64,000 nt of DNA. It comes from Cetorhinus maximus (Eukaryota). Positions 1 to 49,882 of this stretch are shown here, one piece after another (position 1 is the first letter of the stretch; every line of letters begins with the position of its first letter). The notes under the pieces were generated by a model. That model searched no databases. It worked only from the letters and a program-made list of their open reading frames with translations, and was not told the DNA's origin. The DNA lies in NCBI RefSeq assembly GCF_964194155.1, contig NC_135916.1, positions 1,550,001-1,614,000 of the forward strand, written 5' to 3'. The position numbers were made by a program, and so were the translations under genes.

Positions 1-654
1 GAATAGTGACTTTAGCTCTGAACCTCTCCGTCACTGCAATTCATTTATGCATTTTATTCTATAGCTGTCAGGGCCTGGAAGTGACTGTGAGGTGGACTTT
101 GCTTCTGCTGCCATCAGCTTTTGACAAGCTGTAAAAATGCCAGATTCATTCCGTGTGTATCAGTCTCTGGTGCTACACACGAAAGGTGTTACCCTTCAGC
201 ACCTGTCAGTTTGTGGTACTGTGTATGACTGCAGGATTAATACTCTAAATTTCAGTTTTGTCTCCCTTGCGGTGTAGAATTCATTTCATTTCACAATTTC
301 TGTTTAGGATTGAGAAATTGTGTATTTCATTATGTCCTGTCGCTATCCGTGTACTGTGATCGAGTTAATTTTGCACTAAGCAGTAATCTTGTATTATAGG
401 TGGATTTAATTGTACCTCTGTGTATCGCTAAGTATCTCTTATGTACTCAAGAGTGGGATTAATTCTATGCCCTGGTGCAATCAGTGAGAGTGAATTCCAT
501 TTGAATCTGTCAATATCTGGAAATTAATGTGTGGTTCAAAGAGATACTGATTGATTCAACATCTTTGAGTGAGAGTTGTTTTGTGTTCGTCAATCTGTGG
601 CATGTTATGTGACTGTGGGTTTCCTCTGTGTCTTTTTGACTGTTTTTCCTTTTT

Positions 655-770
655 TTGTCGTGTGTGTGTGCGTGTTTGTGTCTGTGTGTGTGTGTGTGTT
701 TGTGTGTTCGTGTTTGTCTGTATCTGTGTTTGTGTGTGTGTGTGTGTTTGTGTGTGCGCGTGTTTGAGTG
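655..770. repeat. Imperfect (TG)n microsatellite
   Basis: Interrupted TG tract. Paralogous tracts at ~8445-8760, 9805-9845, 36430-36510, 49820-49910 and 58690-59000. Confidence 0.95.
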
Positions 771-3400
771 TGTGGCTCTATCTCTGCATTTAATTTTCTG
801 CTATTTTGTTTGTGGTTGGATAAATGCTTTGTTTGTCCTAGGTGCACCTGTGTTTAAGTATTTGTGTGCGTGTGTTTGTGTATGTATGCAAGAGATCTTG
901 TGCGCATGTGTGTTTATGTATGTGTGTGTGAGTTTGCTTTGCATGTGTGTCTGTGTGTGTTAGAGCATGACTCTGCGAGTGTGTGAGTGTTTGTGTGGGA
1001 TTGTGCAGGACTCATTTCCCATTTGTCTTCGTCCGGTACAGGATGTAGTTTTGGAATTAATTTACATGAAATTTAAGTGTCAATCCTGTGAACGTCACCT
1101 ATGGTGGAATTAATTCCCTATATCTCAGTGATTGTACCGATCGTGTATCTCAAATTTGTGCTCTGTGTATATTTTTCCTTTATTGTACATGTGTAGCTTT
1201 CTCCTGTACCAAATATGTATCCCATGCATGTGTGTGAAATCTATTTCTTCAATGCGTTAATCTATTACTGTTTCCCGGCTCTGCTGCAGATTTAGACATG
1301 AAACTTTGTATTTAACAAAGACAGGTTTTATTCATTTGTTTTGTTTGAATTAAGGTATAGCATTCAGGCTGCAACTCGGCAAAAGTCTTTGTGAATGATA
1401 ATGAGACCCTTGAAATTACATGCTGTGTACCTCATATCTGATTGATTCAGTTTGTAACGATTTTACGTTATGAATCATAGTGAGCATATTGACCTGGAAC
1501 GTGTTGTTTATTCATGCTGTACTAATTAAAATTACACTTTCTCCTTATTTCAGATATGGCATGAGATCTTTTGAGGGGAATTTAACGTGCCCCCAGACTC
1601 TTGGTCTTTGGTACGGGCTGTTATGTTTTAATTATCAACTTACATATTTTGATGAATTTTCACGTGTAATTTTACTGTAGTTATCAACATCTGATCTCTC
1701 TGTACCCAATCTCTTCTTATTTTGAAAAGTCGGTTATGGAAAAATTGATTTTATTCTGCACCTCTCTATCTCTGGTATGTGTCTGTGGTTTTATAATGTG
1801 GGTGTCTGCCCCTGTTACGAGAATCCAGCTTTCTTCTGTATCTGTCAGTGCCCCCTATGAGAGTGGTGATATGTTATTGACTGTACTTGTCAATATCGGC
1901 TTTATGAGTGCGGCAGCGCCCCGAAGCCGAATTTCACATTGGGAACACATGAACAATCGTCCTGATTGATCACTTTTTAATCGTTAGCAGTGGCCTCCTT
2001 CTGTGCAGGGACTAGTTCTCTGATTTGCATGGACAGGATGGTCAATAACCATCCAGTGCAACAGGCAGTTATCAAACTATGGTCAACTGCTTGTAAGGCA
2101 GGTATGTTAATCCCTGTCTGACCATCAGACTCTATCCTACGCTACACCATCTGCATATAGGAACACATCACACTATAGAGTTTTGGACTTTTGAATTTGA
2201 TTTTGTCAATTCCCCGTTACATCATCTAATTTAAAGTGCTTCTGCTGCGTACGTATGTTGTTGCACGGCTCATCTTCTGTCAGGAGATGGCAGCAGTTCA
2301 CTATAACTTGGATCTGGCTCTTTCTGATCAAACATCTAGAAAACAATAGGCCTGATGCTGCTCTTGAACATTGCCAAGCTCACCTCCGTTAAAAAGACTA
2401 CGACAGCGGCCAATTACTTCCGCTCCATACAGATCGACACAATGTGTTTTGTTCTGCACTTGATGGTTTTTGCAATGCAATATTCACCCTAACTGGGTAC
2501 TTCTCGGTCACTGGATTCACTGATGTGTTTTATGCCATACCTGTTGTTTTCAAGCAAGGGACAGAGATATTGCTCTGTAATTGACGGTCTTGGAGTTTCA
2601 TTTCACAGCATGTGTTGACTGTTGCTGTGTGAGTGCGCTTTTTATTCAATACTTGTCAGATATTTTGACATAAGAGACTGTGTCTTTTTTGTTACCTGCC
2701 AGTTTTTTGATATTGAGTGTAAGTTCTATACAGCCGTGTGCTTATTCAGGTACGTGAATTAGATTCCCCACCAACAGCTCCGCACCCACCCCCAAACCCC
2801 GCCCCTCCTGTATCTATAGGTCTCCGGGTTGTGTAAAAATGACTTTGCCACGATCTCTGTCAGTTCCTGGTAAATGTGTGCCGGTGTTAGACTGCCCCTG
2901 TGAATTTCTGGTGTGTGAGCATTTATTTTATTATGTAGCAGTTCGTTGCTTGGAAGTGATTGGCGCTTTTCTTTTCTCTCCCCCTCTATTCGTCAGTCTG
3001 TAGCATGAGAATGAGAGTTTTTATTCTGCATCTGCCAATGTCTGACATGTGAGTGTGGGTCTCTCTTGGCATTTGTCAATGTTTGCAATGTGTGTGGTGT
3101 GTGAATGTGAATATTACATTGGGTTATTCAGTGTCAAATCGATCATCGTGTGTTTGAATCAACCTCTCAGTTTCTGACATTTAAATGTGAAAATACCTTA
3201 AAATTATCAGTTCTTTTGTATGTCAACTACATCCTGTACCTATAAATCTATTGTAAGCCAATCTAAGATTTACTCATTCTCTCAGTAATGTTATGTGGTT
3301 ATGTAATCTCTGTTATGACTGAATGGACTTTTCTCGCTATCTGTCAGTTTTCAATGTATGAAAAGCAAATACATGGCAGATGCTTTAAAACATCGATTAT

Positions 3401-3892
3401 GAACATAAGAACAGAAGAAATAGGAACAGGAGGCGGCCATTTGGCCACTCGAGCCTGCCTCATCATTCAATAAGATAATGGCTGATTTCTTTGTGTTTCA
3501 ATCCCCACATTATCATCTACCCCCATAACCTTTGATTCTCTTGCCTATTAAGAATCTATCTGCCTCTGCCTTAAAAGATCTCAATGACCCTGCCTCCACT
3601 ATCTTCTGAGGCAGAGATTTCCAAAGTCACACAGCCCTCTGAGAGAGAAAAATATCCTCACCTATTTCCAAAAAGTGTGATATCTAATTTAGAAACAGTG
3701 CCCCCTATTTCTCGAAACATCCTCTTGGTATCCACAATTTCAAGGCCATTCAGGATCTTGTATACATCAATCAATCACCCCTCACTCTACTGAGACCCAG
3801 TGGAAACAAGCACAGTCTGTCCAACCTTTTCTTATAAGACATCCCACTCATTCTAGGTAACTATCTAGTAAAGTTCCTCTGAACCACCACCA
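3401..3892 (-). mobile_element. CR1-type LINE 3' fragment nested in a plus-strand CR1
   Basis: Starts with the reverse-complement tail GAACATAAGAAC...AATAGGAACAGGAG. Paralog at 54147-54643 translates to IDVYKILNGLEIVD..MFPV. Confidence 0.85.
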
Positions 3893-4692
3893 AGTAGTGT
3901 GAAGTTATCCACATCAGTTGAAAAGACAGCATGGGAGAGTGTTATTTACATGGTGATAGACTGGGAAAGGTTGAAGTAAAAAGGGAGCTGGGTACCCATG
4001 CACACCAATCACTGAGAGCAAGCATGCAGGTGCAGGTAGCACTTAAGAAGGCAAATGATATGTTGGCCTTCATCGTGACATGGTTAATTGCAGGAGCAAG
4101 GATGTCTAACTGCAGCTATACAGGGCATTGGCAAGAACACTCCTGGAGTATTGTGTGCAGTTCTGGTCTCCTTGCCTAAGGGAGGATATATTTATCATAA
4201 GAGGAGTGCGGCGAAGGTTCACCAGAGTGATCCCTGGGATGGCAGGATTGTCCTCTGAGGAGAGTTTGGGTCGAGTAGGCCTGTTTTCACTGGAGTTTAA
4301 AAGGATGAGAGGGGGTCTCAATGAAAGGTGTAACATTCTGACAGGGCTGGACAGATGGCTTGCAGGGATGATGTTTCCTCTGGCTGGGGGTCTAGAACAA
4401 GGGGTCACATTCTCAGGATACAGGGTAGATGGTTTAGAACTGAGATGAGGAGAAAGTTCTTCAATCAGAGGGTGGTAAACCTGTGCAATTCTCTATGATA
4501 GAAGAGTGTGAAAGCCAAGTCACTGAATATATTTAAGAGCGAAATAGATAGATTTCAAGACTCCAAATGGACAAGGGTATGATAACAGTGTGGTTGGATG
4601 GTGTTGAGATATAGGGTCAGCCATGATTAAATTGAATGGCAGAGCAGGCTCAACAGGGCAAATGACCTACTCCTGCTCCTATTTTCTCTCTT
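3893..4692 (+). mobile_element. CR1-type LINE, ORF2 C-terminus and 3' UTR, degenerate
   Basis: LEYCVQFWSPCLREDI...RRFTRVIPGMAGLS.EE.L...LFSLEFKRMRG, tail CCTACTCCTGCTCCTATTT. Confidence 0.92.
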
Positions 4693-4969
4693 TCCATGCC
4701 TGATATGTGATAATGGATTTCAGCTGTACCAGTTAGTTCATGTTTGGGATGTGTGTGTATTTTGTTCTGTATTCATATCTCTGTCTTGCAAGTGGTATAT
4801 TTTGCTCTGTTCCTGATAATTTCTGATGAACTGATCGGTGGTTCTGTTTAGAACCTGTTGATTTCTGCTATGTGAATATGGGATTTCCTTTGTCCTTGTC
4901 AGTTTATGGCATGAAGGTTTAACTCTGCAGCTAATGCAAATTCCAAATACCGTGAATATTGGAAATCTC

Positions 4970-5160
4970 AAGAAGAAAAATCAAAAATGCTGGAAATACT
5001 GAGCAGCTCTGGCAAGATTTGTGGAGACAGAAACAAAACTGCCATTTGTTTGAAGACTCCGAACTGATGAAGCGCCATTGAGCTGAAATGTTTTGTCTTG
5101 TTTTTTTCTCCACAGATGCTCCCAAACTCGCTGATTATTCCTCACATTTTCTTTGTTTGT
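4970..5160. mobile_element. Palindromic repeat resembling a Penelope-like element terminus
   Basis: AAATGCTGGAAATACTGAGCAG..TGTGGAGACAGAAAC is mirrored by TTTCTCCACAGATGCT..GCTGA..ATT..CATTTT. Relatives at ~24950-25180, 29655-29790, 55718-55905 and 63325-63445. Confidence 0.6.
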
Positions 5161-6689
5161 CCCCCATGTATGTTATTTCCAGCAAGTTCATCTGGCAGTT
5201 TCAAATATTTAATTCTGGCTTCCATTCTGACAATTTGCAATAATTGAATGGAGATTTTGCACTGTACCTCTCAGTTGTTTCTTTGTGTGTATCTGTGTTT
5301 TCTGTACCTGTCAGTTTCGAGTATGTGAGGATTTATTTGTACTGCAAATTTTATATTATGCCAAGTCGATGTGCATCCGTTAGCTTCTCTGAACTTACTG
5401 TGCTTTTAATTCTTTACCTGTCTGTGAATGGGGATTCTGCACTGTTCCCTGTTATTTACTCTTGTGTGACTGTATTTTTCCCAACACACTTATAGTTCCT
5501 GCTGGCCTTTACTATGCATATGTCAGTCTCTGTAATGTGAGTGTAGCTATTACTCTGCACTTGCTTGTGCTTGATTTGTGAGTATATTTTTGAGTATTTT
5601 TGCCTGCATCTTAAATGGAATGTGTGTTTTGCTATTAACTCTCATTTGCTAAGATGTGTGTAAGTGGGTGGAACTAATCCTGTACCTGTACCTCTGTGAT
5701 ATATCAGCGTGATTGTATATCCCCACTAACATTTCAGGGTCACATATGTGAGCATGAAAATGATTTTGTGTCCCTTAGTTTACTGTAAATGAGTGAGGAT
5801 TTAATCATTTAATGTCAGTCCTCTGTATGAGAATGTCGGGTTTATTCTGTCCTATTACTGGATAATTGTTATTTTTCTCTGTCTGCCTGTCATATGTCTT
5901 GTCAGTTTTCCTCTGAACCGTCAGGCACCATTATTTGAGCCTGAGTCTGAGGTTGCATTTTCAATTTTATTTGTGATCCTGACCTTTACTTCCCTGTATC
6001 CCTCTGTTTTTGGTATGTGACGAGTAGTTTTATTCAGGACCTTACACATTTGAATTCAGGTTTATGTGTGTTTTTCCTGTAGCTATCAAAGTCTGTTATT
6101 TGAGTAAGAGTGTTCCTCCCTTTTTAACAGTTCAGTTCTGGAAGAATTGGTTTAATTCTGTATCTCTCTGTCTTGAATGTGCTGTTGATGATACATTATC
6201 ACTCTCGGTCTCTGTTATGGGAATCCATATTTTTTGTGTTTCTGGCAGTCTCTGCTAGGGGAGAGGTGTTAATATGTTCCCTGTACTTGGTCAATATTAA
6301 TTTGGTGAGATAAGGTTTAATATATTTATGTTTTTTGAATTGCATTTTCACTAATATTTCTCATTATCCAGTATAATTTATGCATTTTAATTTCATGCCA
6401 GTCATTTTCTAGTATTTGAGTGTGATTTCACTTGATATATTTCTGTCTCTTGCATGCGTGCCTTGGTGAAACTTATTTTCAAGCTGTCAGTGTCTGGTAT
6501 GTTTTATATTTATATGTCAGCCATTTTTCAGTGAATGTGACTTTTATTTTCTGTGTTTTTAGTGCTTTTACTTTTATATATTTTTGCAAATTAGGTAACT
6601 GGAAGAGAATCTTAACCTGCAGTCAATCAGTTGTGTGTCACAATCTTGTTACATTTGACTAAGTGTCTAACGTTTACTGCACCTTCAAC

Positions 6690-8302
6690 AGAGAAAATAA
6701 CTGAGCAAACTATTGGGATTAAAGGGTGACAAGTCCCCAGGACCTGATGGCCTAAGTCCCAGTGTCTTAAAGGAACTGGCAGTGTAGATAGTGAATGCAT
6801 TGGCTATAATATTCCAAAATTCCCTGGATTCTGGAAAGGTTCCAGTGGTTAGGAAAGATGCTCACATAACGCCCTTATTCAAAAAGTGGGGGAGGGAGAA
6901 AGTAGGAATCTATAGACCAGTTAGTATAACATACGTCTTTGGGAAATTGTTGGAATCCATTATTAAGGAAGAAGTAATGGTGCATTTGGAAAGTCAAAAT
7001 GCAATCCATCAGAGTCAGCATGGTTTTATGAAGAGTAAATCATGTTTGACTAATTTGCTAGATTTCTTTGAAGATGTGAGAAGCAAAGTGGGTAATGGGG
7101 ATCCTGTAGATGTTGTATTATCTGGACTTCCAGAAGGCATTTGATAAGGTGCTGCACAAAAGATTAATACGCAAGGTAAGATCACACAAGGTTAGGGGTA
7201 ATGTATTAGTTTGCATAGAGGATTGGCTAACCAACAGAAAGCAGAGATTCGGGAAAAATGTCTATTTTTCTGGATGGCAAGCTGTAACTAGTGGGGTGCC
7301 ACAGGGTTTGGTCAATGGGCCCCATTTATTTACAATCTATATTATTGATTAGGATTCAGGGATAGAAGGTCCGATAGCTAAATTTGCAGATGACACCAAA
7401 ATAGGTGGGAAAGTAAGTTGCAATGAAGAAATAAGAAATTTTCAAATGGATATGGACAGGTTAGCTGATAGGGCAAATGGAGTTTAACGTAGGTAAGTGT
7501 GAGATTATCCATTTTGGTCGGAAGAATAAAAAGGCGGTTTATATTTAATAGAGAGCAACTGCAGAATGCTTCAGTGCAGAGGGTTCTGGGTGATCTCGTG
7601 CATGAATCGCTAAAAGCTAATATGCAGGTACAGCAGGTAATAAGGAAGGCAAATGGAATTTTGGCATTTATTGATAAAGGAAAAGTGTATAAAAATAGGC
7701 AAGTATTGTTGCAACTGTACAAGGCATTGGTGAGACCGCACCTGGAGTACTGCGCACAGTATTGGTCCCCATTCTTGAGGACCGATGTACTTGCACTGGA
7801 GGCGGTTCAGAGGAGGTTCATTAGATTGATTCCAGAGATGTGGGGCTTGTCTTATGAGGAGAGATTGAGCAGTTTAGGCCTATACTCGCTAGAGTTTAAA
7901 AGGATGAGAGGAGATCTAATTGAGGTATATAAGATTCCAAAAGGAATCGACAAAATAGATGAGGAGTGGTAGATTCCCCTTGTGAGACACTCTAGAATGA
8001 GAGGCTATACTTTTAGGCTAAGGGGTGGTAGATTTAAATCAGTGATGTGGAGCAATTACTTTTCTCAAAAGGTCATGAATCTGTGGAATTCACTACCTCA
8101 GAGTGCAATGGATGCCGGGACACTGAATAAATTAAAGGAGGAGATAGACAGATTTTTAATTAGTCATGTGTTGAAAGGTCATGGGGAGAGGGCGGGAAAT
8201 TGGAGTTGAGGTCGAAATGAGATCAGCCATGATTGTATTGAATGGAGGGGCAGGCTCGAGGGGCTGAATTGCCTACTCCTGCTCCTAGTTCTTATGTTCT
8301 TA
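6690..8302 (+). mobile_element. CR1-type LINE, 5'-truncated, broken RT domain
   Basis: YRPVS, QHGFMKSKSCLTNL, LDFQKAFDKV, SGVPQG, KFADDTK, LVRPHLEYCAQ. Ends in (TTCTTATG)2. Confidence 0.95.
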
Positions 8303-11030
8303 TGCATTACCAATGTATATAGTCCTGCTAATTTTCAGCTGCGTATGTTTAAATTACTACCGTAATACCTGCTTCTTAACTACCGGGCCAGCATTTAATT
8401 ACTTAGATGCTGTCAATGTTCCATGTATATACTCACAGATGCTTCTTGTGTGTTTGTCTGTGTGTGTGTGTGTGTGTGTGAGAGAGTATTTGTGTCTGCA
8501 GGTGTGAATTTTTGTGAAAATCTGCATGACTGTGTGTGTCGGAGAGAAAGTGCAAGTTTGTTACTGTGTGCATTCATTTATGCATGTGTGTGTTTGTGCT
8601 TCTGTGTGCGTGAGGGCCTGTGTGTATGTTTGTGTGCATGTGTGTGATTTTTTGTGTGTGTGTGTTTGTGTATGTGTGCAACAGATGGTGTGCACATTTG
8701 TGTATATGTATGTTTGTCTGTGTGTGTTAGTGCAAGAGCCTGCGAGTGTGTGAATGTTTGTGTGGGAGTGTGCAGGGCTAATTTCCCATTTGTCTTTCTC
8801 TGGTACAGGATGCAGCTTTAGAATTAATTTTAATGAAATTTAAGTGTCTACCCTGTGACCATTACCTGTGTTGGAATTAATTCCCTAAATCTCAGTTATT
8901 ATACTGTTTGTGTATCTCAAATTTCTCCTCTGTGTATATAACTCCATTATTATACATGTGAAGGTTTCTTCTGTACATAACATGTATCACATTCATGTTT
9001 CTGAAAACTATTTCTCCAATGCATTAATCTATTACTGTTTCCTAGCTCTGTTGCAGATTTTAAAATGAAACTTTGCATTTATCAAAGACCGGTTTTATTC
9101 TTTTATTTAATGTGAACTAAGGTATAGCATTCAGGCTGCAACTCGGCAAAAGTATTTGTGAATGATAATGAGACGCTTGAACTCACATGCTGTGTATGTC
9201 ATATCTGATTGATTCAGTGTGTAATGATCTTACGTTATGAATCATAGTGAGAATATTAAACCGGCATGTGTTGTGTATCCATGCCATATAAATTAAAATT
9301 ACACTTTCTCTTTATTTTAGATATAGTATGAGATCTTTGGAGGGGGGTTTAATGTGTTCCTCTGTGAGAACCTAGGTACATTCTACAGAATAATTTTGTA
9401 CATTTCAGTCTGTTGCACTATCTGTAGCTAAGACTGCACTCTTCTGAAATGAATGAGGTGCCTTTCAATCTGATAGTATTTGTGGGTTTGGACTGAGATT
9501 GATGGACCTACCTTTCTGCGGTGCTTAGTGAGTGTGAATTGGGGAGAAATATTCTGTCTCCCCTGTTGTATTTGACTGTTGCGTTGAACACGTCTATCTG
9601 AAACTTGAGATCAATGTGAATCTGATTCCTGCTCTCAGTGATGGTGGAACTGCTGTTCTGTCTGTGCTTTGAACAATAATGTACCTATGCCTACTCGAAG
9701 CATAGAGCTGCATGATTATTTAAGATGGGAAATCTATAGCTTGGCATTGGGGCTCAAAGAGAAATGGTGGCCCAATGTTATATAATTTTGAGATTGCAGG
9801 TAAGTGTGTGTCTGCGCATGTGTGTATGTGTGTGTGTGTGTGCGTGTACATTTACCTGCCGGTCTTTAGTATGGGAGAAATTTATTTCTTCTCCACTATT
9901 TATATTCCGCTATGTGAATGTGGGATCACACTGTATCTTTCACTTTTTAACATCTTACTATGGCGTTTATTTCTTTCCTGCCTGTGAATGGGGATTCCAA
10001 AATGCACCTAGTTATTTGTTGCTGTGTGACTGTCTGATTTGTTTTATGAATGTTTGTAATTGATTCTGGGCTTTACTCTGGATCATTGACTCTCTGTAAT
10101 GCATTTGTGGCTATTATTCAGCACCTGTCAGTGCCTGATTTGTGAGTAAGCATCTTACTTTCACTGTTTCTGACATGTAATGCATATTTTTACTCATTGC
10201 CTCTTAGTTACAGGTATGTGGATTTGCATTTTATGTTCTGTATCTGCAATACTGTGAAATGTCAGTGTGATTCATTTTCCTGTTCTTTGTGTCAGGATCA
10301 GAAATGTGAGCATGGAAAAATTTGCTGAAACTCAGGTTATTTCAAATGAGTGAGACTTTACTCATTTGCTGTCAATCCCTGGTATGAGAAGGTATGGTTT
10401 AGTCTATGCCTATCATATTCTTGTGTGTGAGTATTGTCTTTTCCCATGGTCTGCATGTACCTTGTAGGTCATTGTCGATTTTGCTGTGAACTTGTCAGCC
10501 TGTATTACTTAAGTGTGATATTCACATTGCAGCTTTCAATTTAGTGTGTGAGCAAGGACCTCCCCCCACACTAACATCCCCCGCACTACCCCTGACTGTA
10601 TCTCTTGGTCTTTCATACAGGCTGTTATGTTTTAGTCAGCAACTTATGGGTTTTGATGCATTTTCAGGTCTGACATTACTGTAGCTATCAACATCTGATT
10701 TCTCGGTACCCAACCTCTTCATATTTTGAAAAGTCTGTCATTGAAAAATTGATTATATTCAACACCTCTCTATCTCTGGTATGTGTCTGTGGTTTTATTA
10801 TGTAAGTGTCTGCCCCTCTTACAGGAAGGTAACTTTCTTCTGTATCTGTCAGTCCCTCCTATGAGAGTGGTGTTATGTTATTCACTGTACTTGTCAATAT
10901 CTGCTTTGTGAGTTAAGTTTTAAACTTTCTTGTTTGTAGTGATCTGTCGATATAACTATTCTGAAAATATTGCTCTGGCATGTGATGTGTATGCGCGTCT
11001 GTATTAATGAATAAGTACTTTATCATTACC

Positions 11031-11620
11031 AGGAGCAGGTGATGGTGTAGTTGTATTGTCATTGGACTAATAATCTGGACAGCCAGGGTAGTGCTCTGGG
11101 TTCAAACCCTGACACTGCAGATGGTGGAATTTAAAATCAATAAAAATATGAATTGAATTAATGATCACCACGAAACCATTGTCGATTGTGGTAAAAACCC
11201 TTCTGGTTCACTAATATTCTTTAGAGAATGAAATCTGTCGTCCATGTACATGTGACTCTACACCCACAATTAAATGCCCTCTAAAATGGCCTAGCTAGCC
11301 ACGCAATTGTAACAAATGGCAACAAAAAGATCATCGACAAAGGCAATCTCAGCCCTGTTGATCCTGAGGGACAAGGGCAGCAGATCGATGAGAACACCAC
11401 CACCTGGAAATTCCCCTCCAAGTGCCTCACCATTCTGAGATGGAACTATGCTGTCATTGCTGGGTCAAAAACCTGAAACTCCATTCCTAACAGCACTGTG
11501 GGTGTATCAACACCACAGGGACTGTAGCGGCTCAAGAAAGCAGCTTGTAAACCAACTTCTCAAGGGCAACTAAATGCTGTCCCAGCCAGCGAAGCAAACA
11601 ACTCAAGGATGAATAAAATA
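11031..11620 (+). mobile_element. tRNA-derived SINE with a LINE-like tail
   Basis: TGGTGTAGTTG (A box), GGTTCAAACC (B box), tail CCTAACAGCACTGTGGGTGTA...CTTCTCAAGGGCAA...GAATAAAATAAA. Confidence 0.8.
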
Positions 11621-12774
11621 AATGTATGATACTGTGTGGGATCTTTGGTGTTGAGTCTATTGCATTGCTTTATGAATGCTGGGTACATTCAAGGATTCAT
11701 TCATTGAATTTCAATCAGCTTTATTTCCTGATATTTAAATTACAGCCAATGTTCCATTCTTGTGACATGCATGGAGTGAGCTTCAATTTGATATTGGTTG
11801 TGAGTTTGGACTGAAATTGGTGGACCTGCCATTCAGAGGTACTGAGTAGGAGTGTATTGTGATTATTCCAACCATCTCCCCAACCCCCGCCTCCCTTCTG
11901 AGCGTTTGACTATTGGATTGAGCACATGTATCTGGTATGAATTCCATTTGATTCTGACTATTTCTGTCCGTGGTGACGGTGGAAATGATGTTCTGTCTGT
12001 ATCTCTGCACTCTGTGAGTAATATCATACCTGCTGTCAGTAACAATGAGATGGCTGCACTTTTATTTTGGTTGGGAAATCAACAGCTTGAAACCGATCCC
12101 TTCATGTATTTGCCTAGAGGAAGAAACATATCTCTTGAAAGTCAAGATCAGCTGAGGCTTTGAAAGAAAATAGATCAACGTAACCTGGCAACTGATAATC
12201 AATTTTTATAATGCTCTACAAATCGTAAAGGACAATAAGAAGTACAGTCCCTGATTCCACTTCAGCACCCTGCTTCGGTACTTTTCAAACATTTGAGTAA
12301 CATTCAGAAACAGTCCTGTCCTGTCCTCCTCCAAGGATGTCACTACCCGAGGGGACAGGTACATTGGTGCAGGTCAGGTTTCAATTTCCAGCTCCCATTG
12401 TAAGAGCCGTCAACAAAAACCAACAGCCGCTGCGACAATGTTTCTTTAACACTTATCACTTGAAAAGCTGGTGCCTGCGATGGGTGATATTTACATGATT
12501 GTTCCCCATCCTCACTGTCCGCCTGTTTCCACTGTTCACTGTCCAAATGCCGACAAGTTGCATGAATCAGCAGCTATACTTGGAATATGCATTACAGGTT
12601 TGAGGGGAGAAAATCCCAATAGTTTTCAATTGCAGCTTGCTCAGGTTGTGTCTCCCTCAGCAGGGCCACACACAGCCCCAGAAAGGCCTCTCCCCGTCCA
12701 CCCGCTCACTCCAAGTTCCGGAACACGTTCCCGCACCGCTCCGCCTCTTACAAACAGCCCCCGGTTCCCCCTGA

Positions 12775-13032
12775 ACTTACCCCGAGTCAATGATGATTTC
12801 TGTGTCCACACTGACAAACCGGGGCCCTGCTGGAATCAGAACGCTGTTTACTCGCTTACCCGGGCCCTAATATTTCCATTTCTATCTGTTTGAAACAAAG
12901 GTCTCCCGCTCACTGAATGAAAAACTTCAATGGCGGAGTCTGGGAGAAGGGCAGCGCATGCGCTCTTCTAGTCAGGTCTGAGGAGTTGAATGAGGGCAGC
13001 AATGCGCATGCGCTTCTCTGGAATTTTACGTC
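12775..13032 (-). promoter_or_regulatory. Putative TATA-less promoter plus non-coding first exon (copy 1)
   Basis: GCGCATGCGC (NRF1 motif) at 12954-12963 and 13004-13013, ACGTCA half-CRE ~13028, minus-strand donor GG|GTAAGT at 12780 followed by G-rich sequence. Confidence 0.6.
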
Positions 13033-13191
13033 ACAGAATCAACATCATTTGCTCCTCCCCTCAGTCAATGTTCTCCAGCTTGAGCATCACAACTGGGGCT
13101 GTGTGGAACGTTTCATCTAAGGCAGCATCCTGGTTATCTGAATATCCCTGGTCACCCTTGGTTCTCTGGGCTCGTTACTCCTTCCTCCTTC

Positions 13192-15854: not shown

Positions 15855-16508
15855 ATGACCGATACTGCAGCCGCCGAAACGGCTCCTCCAGCCGCTCCCG
15901 CCGCCCAGGTCAAGACTCCCAAGAAGAAGAAGAAGGCGGCTCCCCGGAGCAGTGCAGCCGGTCCCAAGCTGGGCGAGCAGATCCTCAAGGTTGTGGCGGA
16001 TTGCAGCGATCGCAAGGGGATGTCGCTGCCCGCGATCAAGAAGGCGCTGCGCGGCAAAGGGCTGGATGTGGAGAAACTCGGCTCCCAGATCAAGCAAAGC
16101 ATCAAGAGGAATGTGAAGAATGGCTTCCTGGTTCAGGTCAAGGGCACGGGCGCCTCGGGCTCCTTCAAAGTCCCTAAGAACACAACCCCGGGGAAAGTGG
16201 GAAAGAAGGCGAAGGTAGCAGCTGGCAAGAAATCTCCAGTGAAGAAAGCGGCAGCCAAGAAGGTGACAGCAAAGAAAGCAACGGCCAAGAAAACAGTGAA
16301 GAAAGCACCGGCCAAGAAGACTCCAGTCAAGAAAGCAGTGGCCAAGAAATCCCCAGCGAAGAAAGCAGCGGCCAAGAAAACAGCCAAGAAGGCGGCAACT
16401 CCCAAAAAGCCGGTGAAAAAAGCAGCCCCCAAGAAAAAGTCTCCGGCCAAGAAGGTGACGGGCGTCAAAAAAGTGGCGAAAGGGAAGGCCAAGCCCAAAG
16501 GGAGATAA
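15855..16508 (+). CDS. H1: Linker histone H1, replication-dependent type (217 aa)
   Basis: Winged-helix globular domain ending in LVQVKGTGASGSFK, K/A/P-rich tail with (S/T)PxK motifs, intronless, stem-loop downstream. Confidence 0.97.
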   Translation: MTDTAAAETAPPAAPAAQVKTPKKKKKAAPRSSAAGPKLGEQILKVVADCSDRKGMSLPAIKKALRGKGLDVEKLGSQIKQSIKRNVKNGFLVQVKGTGASGSFKVPKNTTPGKVGKKAKVAAGKKSPVKKAAAKKVTAKKATAKKTVKKAPAKKTPVKKAVAKKSPAKKAAAKKTAKKAATPKKPVKKAAPKKKSPAKKVTGVKKVAKGKAKPKGR

Positions 16509-16565
16509 GCAAAGACAGGAAAGAAGGGAAAGATCCCGAGCAAATTGTAAACCTCTGAACCAAAA

Positions 16566-16606
16566 GGCTCTTTTCAGAGCCACCCACATTTCACATGAAA
16601 GAGCTG
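16566..16606 (+). terminator. H1 histone 3' stem-loop and U7-binding downstream element (HDE)
   Basis: GGCTCTTTTCAGAGCC 16566-16581, then ACCCA, then AAAGAGCTG 16598-16606. Confidence 0.97.
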
Positions 16607-17264
16607 ATTCCCTGATCATTTGATCCCTGTCTCCGCGCTGGGAGCAGTTTTCAGATGGAAATGTTTCTTTATCCTTCCACTTAAATCCTATTTTCCCGCT
16701 CACTCACTGACACACTCTCCACCCGTCCCCTCCCGCACTGTGCAATAAGACACAGGGATATCCTTACAGCTCCCTATCCGGAATGTGTCCCAGTGCATTC
16801 AAAGTTTATCTTTCCTTTATTCACATTTTCAAGGTGAGAGTCTGCAATGGAGTGAGCATCGCTCAAATGTCCCGTCTCACAACTAAGGCCCATACCTGTT
16901 GTTTCTCTAATTCTGTTGGAAGAGATGTTAGGGAATTTCTCAATCCCTTTTGGCAGCCTGGAGGGGAGGGTTCGGGGGATAGTCTAGAGTTGTGTTGGTA
17001 TAGAATAGGAGAGGGATTGAAATAGATGCAAACATTTGACTCTTGATTGAAATGCAGTATCGAGGGGGGAATATTACTGAGAGGATTGGATTTAATACAT
17101 TCGATTTTCAAAATAGCTGGTTTATGATGTTGAAGTATTTCAGTTACATTTAAAGTTTTCTGTTCAGCTCTCTTCAGAATTTGATAACTAAATGTACTTC
17201 GGGCTGGCAGGAGGAGGGACTGTCTGACCAGAGACATTGTCCTGACTGTCACTCAGGCTGTCTC

Positions 17265-17355
17265 GCCCCGCCTCTGACACACACACACACACACACACAC
17301 ACTCTCTCTCTCTCTCTCTCCCTTCCTCAGTCAGGTCGGGGCGGGCTGTATAAAA
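17265..17355 (+). promoter_or_regulatory. H4 proximal promoter with an internal (AC)n(TC)n microsatellite
   Basis: GCCCCGCC, (AC)13(TC)9, TCAGTCAGGTC (H4 site II-like), GGGGCGGG, TATAAAA 17349-17355. Same layout before all four H4 genes. Confidence 0.85.
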
Positions 17356-17402
17356 GTGGAACGTGAAGCAGCTCCCCACTCATTCAGCAGCGATTTGACT
17401 GA

Positions 17403-17723
<321 letters not shown>

Positions 17724-17756
17724 ACAAATCGACCCGACTCTATAACAAAACCCAAA

Positions 17757-17772
17757 GGCTCTTCTAAGAGCC
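17757..17772 (+). terminator. H4 histone 3' stem-loop
   Basis: GGCTCTTCTAAGAGCC followed by GCCCA and purine-rich TGAGAGCAG. Confidence 0.95.
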
Positions 17773-18848
17773 GCCCACAACCTCACATTGAGAGCAGTGA
17801 CTTCAGAGCGGGAGAGGGAAAGCGATATGTAGTTTTATAAACACACAGCGTTTCCATCTGCGCATTTTCCATTAACAATATGATCGTGAGTCACACAAGT
17901 TTCATGGTTTAATTTAGTTCGGTTTTCAGGAATTCGTTTCCATGATTCCTGCCGAAACTCGATTCAAAGCTTGACTGAGGAACACGACAGCTCCCAAACT
18001 AACACCGAGTTCACAAGATAAAGGCCATCATTTATTACACTTTAATCAGGAGTAACTATTTTGAGACACATCATTCTCGCTTCTTCGCCCCATTATCACC
18101 CTGTCTTTTTTCTTCGCCATCTGTTCCTGGGTCGTTGAGACATGACAGGGTGTGGGGGGTACCAGTATACCAGCTTTAAATGGATTAGCCTGTACCGATG
18201 CAGCATGTTGTCTGGTTCCAGGGAGCACTGAACAACTTTATTCTGGCCTGTATCAGGGCGATCAATGAAATAACCCGAATTTAAACGGGAATGTAAGGCG
18301 AATATTGAGAGGCTGATAGAAAATTTCTGACTAAACTTAATCACCTCGATTCTGCCTCTCAGGACGGACGGAAGGGTGAAGTGGAAGATCTGCTTTTGGT
18401 GCATGGTTTGGACTGCGAAGATGCATTTACGCACATTGTGGAAGATAGTTCAAATATGTAAACTTAGATATTAACTTGATTTACAGAAAGGGTGCGCAAT
18501 CCGCCCACCCACATCGCCTCCCCCAGCCATAAAACACTAGAAACAAGAGCCAAGCCATTCTCTTTATAACATCTATAGGGCTTTGACATGAATAAACCGA
18601 TAAGGTTGATCAGTTTTATATGTGAGACCCAAAATTCCGCCCATCAATAGGAGTTTTATTCCAGCCTGCTGTAAACCGATCAGGGAATGAATGAGAATTT
18701 AATCCACGTTCAAAAGCCGGAAGTCGGAGCTGGGACCGAAATGGGGCTCGCAAACATTGAGACCTTGTGATATTTGTCCATTCAGATTGATTTTATCTGC
18801 CTTCAAACTAGGTTTATTTTAATGTCAGTTACTCTTCCCTTTGAAATT

Positions 18849-19000
18849 GGCGGGCATTTTGAAATTGATGAACTGTCAGTTTCTGCTCCACCAATCAGGG
18901 CCCAGGAATCCATACAGCCCGCTGCTCTTTTCAAATTTCTGGGCGGGATTGCGCTGCATCCAATCAGGACAGGAGGGAGGTGACGGACATGTCTTAAATA
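18849..19000 (+). promoter_or_regulatory. H3 promoter (type 1): CDE/CHR-like pair, two CCAAT boxes, TATA-like element
   Basis: GGCGG-N4-TTTGAA 18849-18863, CCAATCAGG at ~18891 and ~18960, CTTAAATA at ~18993. Confidence 0.8.
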
Positions 19001-19001
19001 G

Positions 19002-19469
<468 letters not shown>

Positions 19470-20180: not shown

Positions 20181-22148
20181 AACATTGAAAAGCCCGACGA
20201 AACGTATGTAAAACGAATAATTAATTTGATACAGAATATTGCCTTAACATAAAGCTCAGTCAATTCCATAGTTTAAAAGATTGGTCTCCCTTACTGCACT
20301 ATATCATATTTGGTCACAAGCCCCAAATTCGCTTTTAAAATCCGGAATCCATTCGGGTTTAATCTCGGACCTTTTTTCCAGTCCTCTTTCTCTTTGTTCA
20401 ACATATTCTGGCATGTGAATATGGGCTTTTATTAGGACTCTCTGCACCTTGTATATCATTGTCCGTTCTTTGAATATGATGCTCACTTTTCAACTTTTTA
20501 ATGTAGCATGTGAACATGGATTTTAATCAGGACTTATCAGTTGTTGACTGTGTATAAGTGTCATATTCATTCTGTATGTATCAGCCTCTGGTGCTGTGTA
20601 TGAATCTTGCTAACCTTTGTTATGTGCCTGTTGTGGTTCTGTATATGGCTGCAGAATTAATACTCTAAATGTAAATTTTGGACCCTGTGGGCATTGAATT
20701 CGTTTTTTTCTTTCACCATATCTGTTAAGAATTGATGAGTTGTGTGTTTTATTAAGTGTTTTCAGTTACTTGAATACTGTGATAGAGTTGAATTAATCCT
20801 GTACCCACCAGTGTGTTGCATTGTATGTGGAGGAATACATTTTGCCCTCTGTGTAGGACTCTGTACTGCTATGCATGGAAGAGTGCATTCATTCTATCTG
20901 CAATATTTTCTGGTACTATCCGTGAGAGAGGGATTCCATCTGAATCTATCAATATCTGGAACTAAATGTGAGAATGAAGTTGATACGGATCCAGCCAAGC
21001 TGTTTGAGAGCAATATTTTTTTGTGTGTCAGTCAATCTGGGCAATTTTATGTCATTGTGGGTTTTTGGCTCTGCGTCCTTAAGACTTTTCTAAAAAGATT
21101 TGTGTATGTCTGTGGCTCCTGCTCTCCATTTAATTCCCTGCTACTCTATATGTGGTTGAATAATGCATTGCTTCCAAATATATTGTTAGTTTCTTGCTCT
21201 ATATTTATTAGTCCCTTAAATTGATGGAGTGTGTATTCACTCATTTAGCTGACAGTGAGTGTGATTCATTCAAATTATCCCTGCATCTGCTATTGCATGG
21301 GAATGTGCCACTCTCTGCATGTCTTTCAGTGCCTAGTACAATGCATGATTTTGGGATTAAATTGTACATGACAGCGTCGGGTAAGGTATGTGTTTGTGGA
21401 GTTATTTCTATAATGTTATGGCCTCTATGATTCTATATGAATGAGATTATTTTGGTATACTTCAGTTTCAGGTAGGCTAAGTGAATGTGGGGTTCATTAT
21501 TTATCTTTCAGCCTTGGTGCTTTCCAAGAGTAAGTGCTAAGGTTAAACAAGAAGTGTTCTGAGAACTTACATTATGATTCTTAGTGAGAATATTGATATG
21601 GCACGTGTTGTGTATTAAGGTCTGTATTCATTAAAATTATATTTTACCTTAATTTCAGATATTGTATGAGATCTTTGGTGTGGAATTTAATATGTTGTTC
21701 TGTGGGGCGTCTGGGTACATTCTTAGCTTCACATATACAGCTGATTGAAATGCACAGATTTAATGCTAAGACTCCACTCTTGTGAAAGGAATGGATTGTC
21801 TTGCAATCTGAAAAAGTTTTGGGCCAGGATTGATGGGCCTACCATTCTGTGACACTCATTGAGTTTGAATTGGGGATCATATTCTGTCTCCCCTGTCGTG
21901 TTTGAATGTTGCATTGAACATGTCTGCCCATTTTTGGTTTAACCTATAACATGGGTTCTACCAATGTTATAGCCATAAGTTATATTCTGTAGTTGCATAG
22001 GAGTTCAAAAATGGTACTCAATTTGTAGCTCTGTGAAAACAATTGTGAATAGCTACATCCCCTTCAATCAACTATATAGCCTCACATGTAATTGATGCAG
22101 TTTGTAGTCAAGGAATTACCATTGTACCTTTATTCATGCAGAGCTTTT

Positions 22149-22630
22149 CATAGAATCACAGAATCACACAGTGCAGAAGAGGTCCTTCAGCCCATCGAGT
22201 CTGCAACAACACGTGAGAAACACCTGACCTACCTACCTAATCCCATTTATCAGCCCTTGGCCCCTTAGCATTGAATGTGATGATGTGCCAAGTGCTCATC
22301 CAAGTACTTTTTAAAGGATGTGAGGCAACACACCTCCACCACCCTCCCAGGCAGCGCATTCCAAACCGTCACCACCCTCTGGGTAAAAATTTGTTCCTCA
22401 CATCCTTCATAAACCTCTTGCCGCTCACCTTGAACTTACGCCCCCTCGTGACTGACTCTTCAGTCAAGGGGAACAGCTGCTCCCTATCCACCCTGCACAT
22501 GCCTCTCATGATCTTGCACACCTCACTCAGGTCGCCCCTCAGCCTTCTCTGCTCCAACGAAAACAACCCAAGCCTATTCAACCTCTCTTCATAACTTAAA
22601 TGTTTCATCCCAGGCAACATCCTGGTGAAT
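22149..22630 (-). mobile_element. CR1-type LINE 3' fragment
   Basis: MLPGMKHLSYEERLNRLGLFSLEQRRLRGDL, tail repeat (CACAGAAT)n on the plus strand. Confidence 0.92.
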
Positions 22631-24149
22631 ATTTTGTTAGAATGCTATGAAATATATAGCCCTGACTAAATTCTGAGGTACTGCATTGCAATTTATTTAG
22701 TAACGTACAGTGAGCTATCTTTTTTCTGTTCTGGCTAAGAAGAGTTAAGTAATATCTGATGAGAATGAAAGAGAGAGTATGATATTTGTTGTGTTTTCTT
22801 TTAATCCTTTGATTGGTCTGCTGGATTATATGGTAGATGGAAATATAAACCATATTAAGACTCTCCGGAGCAGTTTGTCTTTTGGATTGAACAGTTGTCT
22901 CTTCCCTTTGAAACAGTGTGGGAATGAATAATTATTTACTCGTGACAGTGGACATAATGACCTGGCAGCATCTCTGTTCTCTGTGAACGATGCTGCAAGT
23001 ATCTTGTGTTGGAACAAGCTCACTTTTCATCTTGCTTATGTTATAACTTTTATAGTTGTCACTATTATGTATCCACCTTAGTTACGAGCCTCATCTGTCG
23101 ATGCATAGCATTGTTTGTGAGCTGAGATTTGTTCACTTCTTTTTAAATTGATCATTTCAACCATTTTATGTTTACCATTGTTTCCACTGCATATTAATTT
23201 ATTAATTTGCAGGCCTGTACTATTATTTGAGTAATGTTTCCATTTTTAAAAATGATGCTGAATTTCACTTTCATAACATATGGGTGAAAAGATTATTTTG
23301 TCATCTTATTGGAATTGGGATCCCCCTTCTTTGCTGCAATTAATTCTATGAATTGCATGTAAAGTCACTTGGATCCATTTAGGTATTTTAACCTGTATCA
23401 AATATATTATTTTCGTTGGAATGGAAGTGTGATGTTGGTCTGTAACTCTCAGGATATGTTTGTAATTACACTGCACGTTAATTTTTGCTGTGAGTGACTG
23501 ACTGTTTAGAAAATCCATCCATGTCATTTTTTTTTTAGCATAAGATGTGTTTCATTCTCTATTTTCCAGTTTTGTTTTATAAATGAGTGTAAGTTCTGTA
23601 TAATTGTGTGCATTTTCAGGTATGTGAGTATGATTAGTTTTTCTTCTCCAGTTGTATTTATTAATTTCTAAGATGCCAAAATGTGATTTTGACATGGTGC
23701 CTGTCAGTTACTGGTAAGTGAGTGCTAGTGTTACACTGTCCCTGTGAATATCTGGTGTATGAGCATTACTTTGTAGCACTTCATTACTTGCAAGTGACTT
23801 TTTTTTCTCCCTCTTTGTGGCATGTGAATGTGAATATGTGTGTTGCTCTTACTTGGCATTTGACAGTTTTGTTACGTGTCTGGTAAGTTAATGTGAATTT
23901 ACACTCTTTCTTTTCCAGTTTTTAACATGTAAACATGTATTTGAGACTGATTCCCAATCTCTGGCATGAAAATTAGGAAATACCATAAATGTTTCAGTTT
24001 TTTATTCTGGATGTGTCACAAATATTCTTTAATCATTCTTCTCTTGTAAAGAAATTCTAAGATTTACTCAGATTCTCTTAGTAATGTTATGAAATTGTGT
24101 GATTATTGAACTGTGTGTAAGCCTGTCTGTGTGTGTGCGCCTGTCTGTG

Positions 24150-24373
24150 NNNNNNNNNNNNNNNNNNNNNNNNNNNNNNNNNNNNNNNNNNNNNNNNNNN
24201 NNNNNNNNNNNNNNNNNNNNNNNNNNNNNNNNNNNNNNNNNNNNNNNNNNNNNNNNNNNNNNNNNNNNNNNNNNNNNNNNNNNNNNNNNNNNNNNNNNNN
24301 NNNNNNNNNNNNNNNNNNNNNNNNNNNNNNNNNNNNNNNNNNNNNNNNNNNNNNNNNNNNNNNNNNNNNNNNN
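24150..24373. other. Assembly gap (224 N), probably in a TG-rich tract
   Basis: N run. The paralogous position (36430-36530) is a TG/AG microsatellite. Confidence 0.99.
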
Positions 24374-26704
24374 TGCCAGTTTATGCTCCTTTTGTCTATC
24401 TTATGTGTGAATGGACTTTTCTCTCTATCTGTCATTTTTCAATATGTACATGTGCACATTGACTGGCACTCACAAGTATCTGGCATGCTGGTAAAGGTAC
24501 ATTTTGTACATATCCAGTTTTAGCTTTTCCCTTAGGATAGCCTTGGCTTTAAGTTGTAATATTCAGCTTCTGGTATGGAAGTGTGCATGTTACCCGTACC
24601 TGACCCTTTCAGATATGAGAGTGTGGTATTCAAATTGTCTGCTCGTTTCTAGCCTCTGATGTGAGCATTTTTACTTTTGTTAAAGTTAGCATTTTTAATG
24701 ATACTCTGCATTTACTGTGAATTTCAGTATCTGATCTACGATTGTGGATTTTAATCAGTACTGGTTTGTTTCTGTTTGGGATTGATATCTCTGTTATAGG
24801 AGTGATATATTCCATTCTGTTATTGTCACTTTCTAATGAGCTGAATGATCCTTTTTGATCAGAATCTGTTTAATTTTGGTGCCTGAATATGGGATTTCCT
24901 TTGCAATTGTCAGATTTTGACATGAAGGAATGTTTATACTCTGTAGCAAAAGCAAAAACAAAATATCTACAGGTGGATGCTTGAAATCTCAAGAAAAAGG
25001 AAACACAATTGCTGGAAATACTGAGCAGGCCAGACAACATCTGTGGAGTCAGGAGCTGAATTACCCTCCACCTGAAAATTCTGACATCAGAAAAGGTCAT
25101 TGAACTGTCATGTTCACTCTCAGCCTTTCTGAACAGGTGCTGGCTTCCTTGCTGAGTATTTCCTGCATTGTTGGTGTTTCTTCCTACCCTTGTACGTGTT
25201 AATTTCCAACAAGTGAATATGGCATCACTGTGCACCTGCCAATGTCTGACACTTATGTTTCACTTCAATTCTGACAGGGTTTCAACGTAGAATTTGGTGT
25301 GCGTGTGTGCACATGTGCATGTTTCTAGAATGGTAGAAATTTTTTTTTTCTGCACTTTTCATAGAATGCTATGCGAATGTCAGTTCCCCCTGTATCTGTC
25401 ACTTTTTAACATGTTACTATGAGTCTTATTGTTTACCTGTCTGTGAATGGGGATTTTAAAATGCACCAAGTTATTTGCTGCTGTGTGACTGATTTCTTTT
25501 ATACATGTTTGGAATTAATTATGGGTTTTTAAAAAATATATATACTTTATTTATAAAACATCTGAAAGAAAATTTCTAAATCGCCATCACAAGAAGTGAA
25601 AACAGATTCAACTTTTAGACATGGATCACGAGATGCTTCAATACATTCAATGAATATTACAATCATTTAAATATGGTCATTATAGACAGTCAGACAGCGC
25701 AATGATATTGGAGTTATCAACATACATCATGATGCACACTTGAGGTGTTACAATACTATTACTATTCAATGCAGATATTTTTTGTGAGCAGTACAGCTTT
25801 ACTCTGGGTATTTAACTCTCTGTAATGCACTTGTGGCTATTACTCTGCAGCTGCCAGTGACTGACATGTGAGGATGCATTTTGCATTCACTGTTGCTGAC
25901 ATGTAATGCATATTTTACTACTTAACTCTCAGTTACTGGTATATAGATGTGCAGATTTTATTCTGTATCAGTAATTCTGTGATATGTCAGTTTGATTCAT
26001 TTTCCTGTTGTTTGGGTCAGGGTCAGAAGTATGATCATGGAAAAATAAATATGTTGAAACTCTTAGGCTATTTTAAATGAATGAGAATTTAATTATTTGC
26101 TTTCAATCCCTGGCATGAGAATGTGCCCTATGCTTATCATATTCTTGTAGGTGAGTATTGTCTTTCCTCCAGGTCTGTATGCACCTTGTAGGTCATTGTC
26201 GGTTTTGCCGTGAACATGTCAGCCTGTATTACTTGAGTGTGATGTTCACATTGCAGCTTTCAATTTAGTGTGTGAGCATAGACCATTCGTTCCCTCCTCC
26301 CAACCCCTCAACCCAAACCTACAGATTTTGATGCATGTTCATGTGTGATTTTAGCGTAGCTATCAACTTCTGCTTTCTGGGTACCCATTTTCTTCTTATT
26401 TTGAAAATTCTGATGTGGAAAAAAGGATTTTATTCTGCACCTCTCTATCGCTGGTATGTGTCTGTGGTTTTACAATGTAAGCATCTGCCCCTGTCATGGG
26501 AATTCAGGTTTCTTCTGTATCTGTCAGTCTCTCCTATGAGAGCGGTGAAATGTTATTTGCTGTACTTGTCAGTATCTGCTTTGTCAGTTAAGGTTTACGC
26601 TTTCTTGTTTGTAGAGATCTGTTGATATAACTATTAGTGAGAATATTGCTCTGGCACGTGATGTGTATGTGTGTCTGTCTTAATGAATATGTACTTTATC
26701 ATTA

Positions 26705-28413: not shown

Positions 28414-28636
28414 ACTTACCCCGAGTCAATGATGATTTCTGTGTCCACACTGACAAACCGGGGCCCTGCTGGAATCAGAACGCTGTTTACTCGCTTACCC
28501 GGGCCCTAAGATTTCCATTTCTATCTGTTTGAAACAAAGATCTCCCGCTCACTGGGCGCATGCGCTCTTCTAGTCATGTCTGGGGAAACTGAAGGAGGGA
28601 AGCAATGCGCACGCGCTTCCGTGAAACTGACGTCAC
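28414..28636 (-). promoter_or_regulatory. Putative promoter plus non-coding first exon (copy 2)
   Basis: GCGCATGCGC 28556-28565, TGCGCACGCGC ~28606, full CRE TGACGTCA ~28628, donor at 28419, ~40 bp deletion relative to copy 1. Confidence 0.55.

Positions 28637-47805: not shown

Positions 47806-48126
<321 letters not shown>

Positions 48127-49850: not shown

Positions 49851-49882
<32 letters not shown>

Follow-up and report, generated by a model that had tools for sequence, protein, structure and literature searches.

A promoter with paired NRF1-type motifs, copied with the histone genes of Cetorhinus maximus and facing away from them, very probably drives a spliced non-coding transcript

What is a promoter-like element doing beside the histone genes of Cetorhinus maximus if it points away from them? 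The window analyzed here is a stretch of 64,000 nucleotides (C39:1550001-1614000, C39 being contig NC_135916.1) from a genome of 4.0 Gb. An earlier note had placed three copies of such an element in it, at 12520-13110, 28160-28710, and 62620-63205, and had read them as a repeated, spliced, non-coding unit facing from the histone cassette into the spacer. All three copies are confirmed by the sequence, and the reading has stood up in part: splice joints occur in likely-RNA contigs of two related species, and the element is linked to histone genes in two clusters. The unit is real, ancient, and histone-linked. Why is it there? The explanation we prefer, with a probability only slightly better than even (about 0.52), is that of an old promoter, CpG-rich and lacking a TATA box, that carries two NRF1-type motifs and was copied together with the histone genes. 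It faces away from them, its transcript is spliced at several donors to a non-coding second exon in likely-RNA contigs of relatives, and it is probably kept for a local role, the RNA being a likely by-product.

By the convention used here, the head, exon 1, intron, and exon 2 of the window copies lie on the minus strand. The neighbors of copy 1 and the other two copies are laid out as follows.

15855..19466, plus strand: histone cassette head-to-head with copy 1 (H1 15855-16505, H4 17412-17720, H3 19059-19466)
28160..28710, minus strand: head of copy 2, type B (NRF1 motifs 28556 and 28607; donors 28499 and 28420)
20500..27793, minus strand: exon 2 and spacer of copy 2 (5' end 27793, CAG acceptor; ends near H3 in antisense)
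62620..63205, minus strand: head of copy 3, type A (NRF1 motifs 63051 and 63101; donor 62878 intact; upstream donor and ATG mutated)
48700..62209, minus strand: exon 2 and spacer of copy 3 (5' end 62209)

The array around the window was mapped over 1.064 Mb (C39:910001-1974000), which holds 42 H1, 56 H4, 40 H3, 32 H2A, and 3 H2B genes along with 45 copies of the head and 46 of the second exon. The usual unit consists of spacer, exon 2, and head (all minus), then H1, H4, and H3 (plus), and often H2A (minus); right of 1.70 Mb, ten copies are inverted as whole units. Upstream of the heads lies a divergent H1 in 41 of 45 cases, another head in three, and an H2A in one. The last is window copy 2, which has no adjoining H1 and whose nearest upstream gene is an H2A 2.4 kb off, which corrects the earlier placing of each window copy upstream of H1 or H1-upstream sequence. 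The head-to-H1 distance is 1.8-6.3 kb in 40 copies and 12.6 kb in an outlier. Downstream, the next neighbor is a same-strand H2A (24/45), an antisense H3 or H4 (18/45), or another head (3/45). The heads fall into types A (n=15), B (n=16), and C (n=13) plus the single outlier, with window copies 1 and 3 belonging to type A and copy 2 to type B. The element is larger than the roughly 590 bp first assigned to it, given that homology extends over 1.8 kb at 77% between copies 1 and 2 and over 3.5 kb at 90% between copies 1 and 3.

The array has other peculiarities. The only three H2B genes in C39:968669-1935030 all lie at edges or at the inversion point, and H2B would need to be supplied from elsewhere, for instance the C32 cluster described below; an H2B core pattern has 448 matches in the genome, spread over many chromosomes. 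At 39576-39661 of the window, the 3' end of an H1 stands orphaned; its stem-loop is perfect, and it has been duplicated together with the adjoining H4-H3 stretch. Immediately before the H4 at 47815, on its upstream side, 320 bp of spacer sequence occur in inverted orientation (47310-47637, compared with 935-1262, 8711-9029, and 50070-50397).

Could the element simply be a dispersed transposable element? For the C39-type element this was rejected. A 27-mer taken from it matches the 4-Gb genome at 44 places, every one on C39, and the reversed pattern matches nowhere. Four patterns drawn from separate parts of it give 44, 41, 26, and 45 matches, all within C39 0.98-1.92 Mb and with reversed controls of 0, and it is therefore not a dispersed repeat. 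The exon-2 pattern, with 26 matches, hits cluster positions only, and exon 1 yields 44 candidates. The genome search for histone linkage that had been proposed thus returns the C39 array alone for C39-type patterns, bar one 165-bp intron piece at C3:118099344; this was discarded as a further cluster, there being no histone or NRF1 site in 60 kb.

More diverged relatives of the head do exist, and they too accompany histone genes. An H3 pattern has 169 matches in the genome, at least 29 of them on contig C32 among the 100 listed. Most C32 units stand more than 100 kb apart. A sample of 18 contains 15 full head homologues that are about 60% identical to the window head and face away from H4 (14) or H1 (1). 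The remaining units comprise two with more diverged, partial heads and one whose stretch ended just upstream of H4. In two C32 spacers, the head leads into a CA-rich repeat with a period of 45-46 bp (40-41 on C39). Two C32 heads were followed downstream, over 36 kb and 11 kb, and met no histone gene. LINE-like copies with long ORFs sit beside H2B or between H4 and H1 at C32:14012000-14016400, 11208900-11211400, and 11221400-11223500.

On C39 itself there are diverged heads at 959979 and 1939913 and a weak one near 1678100. The copy at 1939913 (plus strand; L105:5913-6900) is a sibling double-NRF1 promoter with the same start motif. It points outward from the cluster, and the DNA ahead of it has the opposite strand bias and an acceptor-like site. 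An ordinary gene could begin here; a search of sense-strand ORFs downstream (117, then 61 of 140), which short exons would escape, found RVT_1 and no cellular Pfam family. At C39:1678268-1678400, about 10 kb from H2B, three NRF1-type motifs stand 35-36 bp apart in a short inverted repeat. Six unplaced histone contigs show no head in the 8-40 kb covered, which lie on one side of the genes (one side of H3). A third, tandem-like H3 unit occurs on many small unplaced contigs (C408, C1639, C1897, C2039, and C2411), four of these five carrying H2B and a short H2A fragment; no head lies in the stretches fetched.

What has been conserved in the head over this time? Its features in copy 1 are these.

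13028..13033, unstranded: CRE-like ACGTCA (also in the other two window copies; absent at that place in 15/15 C32 copies)
13004..13013, unstranded: distal NRF1-type motif, 0.90 identical to its C32 homologues as against 0.38-0.43 on either side
12954..12963, unstranded: proximal NRF1-type motif, perfect in 15/15 C32 copies and 0.95 identical between clusters
12906..12917, minus strand: putative start-site motif, 0.89 identical between clusters
12520..12915, minus strand: homogenized CpG-rich core (GC 0.53, CpG observed/expected 0.62) with a G-rich tract and an ETS-like block at 12724-12685

The NRF1 motif is a feature of TATA-less promoters, and the 10-mers of the GCGCA(T/C)GCG type are of that kind. 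As had been noticed, each window copy carries two, 50-51 bp apart (12954 and 13004, 28556 and 28607, 63051 and 63101). These GCGCATGCGC motifs are under constraint, standing at 0.90 and 0.95 between clusters in surroundings of 0.38-0.43. Alignment can draw motif matches together; their spacing, which comes from an independent regex, is 47-51 bp in 44 of 45 C39 copies and 49-51 bp in 14 of 15 C32 copies. In the 1.064 Mb, 119 of 129 matches to an NRF1-like regex lie no more than 300 bp from the head's donor. The start motif (0.89) and the ETS-like block (0.84) are likewise conserved between C39 and C32, with other stretches at 0.38-0.62. The ACGTCA motif reported earlier is present in all three window copies and is not universal, TGACGT being found in 31 of 45 C39 copies. 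Downstream of the motifs, 12915-12520 exceeds the CpG-island thresholds of GC >0.5 and observed/expected >0.6 over >200 bp, the spacer having 0.38 and 0.26. Transcription starts are probably spread over about 12915-12970.

Might the head and a histone gene share one bidirectional promoter? That would call for divergent starts no more than about 1 kb apart, and on C39 the 1.8-6.3 kb between head and H1 is too great a distance. On C32, the distal motif is about 650 bp from the H4 ATG, yet H4 has its own TATA box.

The putative transcribed part of copy 1 comprises the following.

12860..12915, minus strand: exon 1, short form, ending at the upstream donor GG|GTAAGC; joined to exon 2 in contigs of runs X1 (two variants, depth 26 and 21) and X3
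12781..12915, minus strand: exon 1, long form, ending at donor GG|GTAAGT; loose ends matching the start of exon 2 in X1 and X4 (on the paralogue L030, mapped by hand)
12114..12780, minus strand: intron 1, 667 nt from the 12781 donor and 746 nt from the 12860 donor, ending in a pyrimidine tract and then TAG
11600..12113, minus strand: exon 2 (5' end 12113, left end provisional), with contig pieces 11947-12104 and 11665-11861 on one 599-nt contig
1..11600, minus strand: spacer, a decayed 40-41-bp minisatellite, rich in CA when read in the direction of the transcript and interrupted by LINE/SINE-like inserts; contigs of X1 and X2 cover 10090-11075 unspliced

The minus-strand segment of about 135 nt described earlier, ending in GG|GTAAGT ahead of G-rich sequence, is borne out: exon 1 ends at 12781, 28420, and 62878, in each case 135 nt from the putative start motif, and the DNA past the donor is G-rich with a G-skew of 0.40. 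Its donor at 12781 was correctly seen, and a second donor at 12860 and the acceptor at 12113 had been overlooked. How well are these sites kept? On C39, the GT of donor 12781|12780 is kept in 45/45 copies and donor 12860|12859 is intact in 43/45, being mutated in window copy 3. The acceptor 12114|12113 is kept in 32 copies; the 13 of type C have lost it and carry instead a new CAG within a few bases on its downstream side, so that some acceptor is present in all 45. Going by these sites, splicing looks maintained within C39. All 15 C32 copies lack both donors, and 5 of them have the acceptor AG. Some 80 nt into exon 2, 14/15 C32 copies keep a donor-like site; its C39 equivalent (12030|12029) is read through in the contigs shown. 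Maintained splicing on C39 and the retention of this site on C32 could mean that the RNA or its splicing matters.

Is the unit transcribed at all? Among 12 sequencing runs, none of them recorded as RNA, seven judged by guess to be RNA and drawn from two other organisms contain 5-8% of the query words. Seven distinct runs, including X12, which bears the label of this species, were compared with window 8850-13400 and with the type-C paralogue L030:3070-5560. Splice joints appear in four of the seven, from three samples, two studies, and two related species, none of them C. maximus. On the window, the upstream donor is linked to exon 2 in X1 (depth 26) and in X3 (depth 11), the exon 2 of X3 being type-C-like. 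Another joint, from a site near 12619 to 12113, occurs in X1 (depth 34) and in X2 (depth 2.3), where it is the sole joint. The donor near 12619 is inferred, since only the outlier copy in the C. maximus genome has a GT there. On L030, the upstream-donor joint recurs in X1 in two sequence variants. The junctions leaving 12781 that had been predicted are represented there by loose ends onto exon 2 in the related species, in X1 and X4 (depth 30; 15 of 17 letters in X4, matched by hand). X5 and X6 cover the head and have no joint among the matches listed. Intron 1 and the spacer are also covered unspliced, with a 1026-nt contig at 10090-11075, and cover reaches 3.5 kb from the start. No joint into a histone message occurs among the loose ends listed; a same-strand H2A comes next in 24 of 45 copies. 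Joints 9339-11709 and 9666-12086 were set aside as spacer paralogy, those stretches being copies.

Contigs convey no strand, start, or expression level. Contig cover in X1 is 718 at 12802-12953 and 2.6 at 12954-13105, where it is 0 in X2, X3, and X5, and this drop above about 12970 is a weak hint of the start site. Run X12, labeled as this species (10.6 million letters), gives one contig on an insert and none on the head. The insert, L030:3900-4390 in type-C units, which by its look we take to be LTR-like, draws deep contigs from all four runs compared, including X12.

At C39:1930724-1932369 (plus strand; L104:6724-8370) stands an old copy of exon 2 by itself, promoterless and 83% similar to the outlier unit. 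It starts at the acceptor after 13 letters, of which 9 fit the end of exon 1 and 3-6 the end of the intron. Perhaps it is a processed copy truncated at its 5' end, in which case it would record spliced RNA in the germline; it is also a warning that joined exon-1/exon-2 forms can exist as DNA. A single retrocopy is an unlikely source of the joints, because these involve several donors and variants and one has 73 letters on its short side. All told, the unit is very probably transcribed and spliced.

What does the transcript encode? In 45 spliced models (exon 1 plus 3 kb) the longest ATG ORFs are 52-100 aa and differ by type, in keeping with the absence of a coding exon downstream already remarked from the letters. 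Exon 1 has an ATG ORF of 23 aa in type A and of 15 aa in window copy 2, the frame is shifted in type C, and copy 3 has no ATG; a micropeptide was rejected on the ground that the frame is not kept. The unit, having no conserved protein frame, is non-coding. A structured RNA in the core was also rejected (fold z = -0.22 against shuffles). Rfam has no family for the head, three weak matches on a TG repeat being far below the cut-off, and in the window it finds six histone stem-loops only. A plus-strand C/D snoRNA, suggested by box-like words near 12790-12815, has no Rfam match. The idea, prompted by shark genomes, that the head is the 5' UTR of a zinc-finger gene was dropped as well: five C2H2-like regex matches occur in the 1.064 Mb, none of them a real finger array.

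If the product is so poorly kept, why is the core so uniform? Copies 1 and 2 are identical over 102 bp, at 12769-12870 (one base off the 12768-12869 first given), and 73.7% alike over 12519-12114, in line with the rough 70-75% estimated for the left flank. Over the core (12915-12520), similarity between the C39 types is 92-97%, compared with 73-74% for their introns. The relatives' best contigs differ from the C. maximus core by about 7% (20 changes in 286, 17 in 255) and from its spacer by 14-18%. In the core, therefore, paralogues older than the species split resemble one another as closely as the species do. Within the C32 cluster this stretch is 0.987-1.0 identical and its flanks 0.93-0.94, and its identity to C39 is mostly 0.51-0.62. 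The pattern fits a core homogenized separately in each cluster by gene conversion just past a start site that would be open. Selection on one RNA sequence does not fit, because homogenization recurs in two clusters with different sequences. Open, G-skewed DNA with G-runs past the start is a likely place for breaks. A conversion tract had been offered as an alternative to a transcription unit; the identical core is conversion-like, and conversion can hold alongside an active promoter.

How, then, would the preferred reading work? NRF1- and ETS-type factors would bind the head and keep a small CpG island open. Pol II would initiate near 12915-12970 and head away from the histone cassette, its RNA being spliced at whatever donor-like sites exist and continuing into the repeat. 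Selection would retain the binding sites, probably since an open or bounded head aids the adjacent unit. The local role is likely that of holding each unit open and unmethylated, or of bounding it. Factor binding, initiation, and any effect on the histone genes are inferences, as is gene conversion as the cause of the identical core.

The chief question for this reading is whether the RNA itself does the work. A multi-copy lncRNA could use its CA-rich body to bind proteins, as hnRNP L-type proteins bind CA repeats, and could serve as a scaffold for the histone locus body or as a source of small RNAs. In keeping with this are the splicing in two related species, the acceptor kept or replaced in every C39 copy, the CA-rich periodic body behind the head in both clusters, and the contigs reaching well into the spacer. 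We nevertheless consider it unlikely: C32 has lost both donors, transcribed sequence is 51-62% alike between the clusters outside the motifs, there is no fold signal, and the spacer differs from the relatives' contigs by 14-18% and carries many inserts. A functional histone-locus lncRNA, as had been suggested, is unsupported so far, because the donors and the RNA sequence are not kept between clusters and the promoter motifs are. The bolder form of the idea, in which cartilaginous fishes have a dedicated Pol II lncRNA gene for each histone unit, predating the cluster split, with a CA-rich transcript that seeds or scaffolds the histone locus body, is doubtful indeed. Equally doubtful is the view that the head is a neutral passenger with no present role, a 5' end remaining from a gene that was lost or lies far away, amplified with the histone units and homogenized by conversion. 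Conversion would account for its core, and the sibling at C39:1939913 faces outward toward an acceptor-like site as the 5' end of a gene would. Yet the motifs and their spacing have outlasted about 40% divergence while their neighbors decayed, which needs selection at some time, and, as mentioned, the sense-strand ORFs searched downstream of the sibling yield RVT_1 only.

Two further proposals look to the genes downstream. An upstream alternative promoter for spliced, replication-independent H2A or H2B messages would make sense of the 24 heads that have a same-strand H2A next and of the diverged head at C39:959979, which is co-oriented with an H2B and 7.5 kb upstream of it. We regard it as very improbable, seeing that an antisense H3 or H4 comes next in 18 copies, that two C32 heads have no histone gene over the distances followed, and that H2A carries its own CCAAT, TATA-like box, and stem-loop. 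A convergent terminator, in which transcription from the head meets H3/H4 read-through of the previous unit and so shields the next H1, is the least credible of all. The C39 head does point at the 3' end of the previous cassette, and AATAAA is abundant on the spacer's sense strand (27 against 13.6 +/- 3.2 in shuffles). However, C32 units, so widely spaced, keep the head, and the AATAAA excess stems from the repeat monomer, which also explains the richness of the opposite strand in donor-like words.

Does the unit resemble anything known? NRF1-bound CpG-island promoters give divergent or host-less non-coding transcripts, and the head is like them in being TATA-less and GC-rich, with a G-skew and several donor-like sites past the start. 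rDNA spacer promoters precede short repeats, are transcribed by Pol I, and face the gene's way; the likeness here is a promoter with a repeat array in the spacer of a tandem family. Unlike both, the head stands alone, 0.65-6 kb from a histone gene, and faces away from it. From the Gall laboratory, newt histone clusters are reportedly accompanied by satellite tracts that are transcribed on lampbrush loops. Two papers treat newt satellite 2 and read-through transcription of newt satellite (PMC2114352, PMC12046345). Newt and shark would share transcribed tandem repeats between histone units; in the newt, transcription reads through from gene promoters, whereas in the shark a dedicated, conserved promoter faces a minisatellite that is short and decayed. 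In the sea urchin, the alpha-histone repeat has the sns5 insulator, a tested enhancer blocker (PMC2794192), which like the head is a non-coding cis element found once per tandem histone unit and sets H1 apart from its neighbors. The difference is that sns5 is a proven enhancer blocker whose abstract describes no spliced transcription unit; for the head, insulation would be a candidate role.

Other histone arrays also carry non-histone genes. According to the part of a review consulted, rRNA genes are interspersed in them: 5S in Artemia and Mytilus, an rRNA cistron in the boll weevil, and both in Potamopyrgus (PMC13525598). These arrays, too, have a non-histone transcription unit once per histone unit. 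Theirs, however, are Pol I/III structural RNAs with Rfam families, whereas the head has a Pol II-type promoter, GT-AG splicing, no Rfam family, and a poorly conserved product. Within the same part, the review does not mention shark, lncRNA, noncoding, or satellite. A stingray histone cluster adjoins tRNA genes, with nothing on a head unit in the portion of the report available (10.1101/2025.06.08.657570). No description of the head unit was found in the literature covered, mostly non-subscription papers without their supplements.

What does the finding mean for histone loci? Near-identity among paralogues, it cautions, is no proof of RNA function. The passengers in the part of the histone-array review consulted (PMC13525598) are rRNA genes, and a spliced, non-coding Pol II unit in two vertebrate clusters would be a new kind of passenger. 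The unit also provides what is probably a clean natural case of gene conversion focused just past a start site, arising independently in two clusters. Finally, the head makes it possible to test directly whether tandem histone genes and histone locus bodies are licensed by the firing of a promoter or by its RNA.
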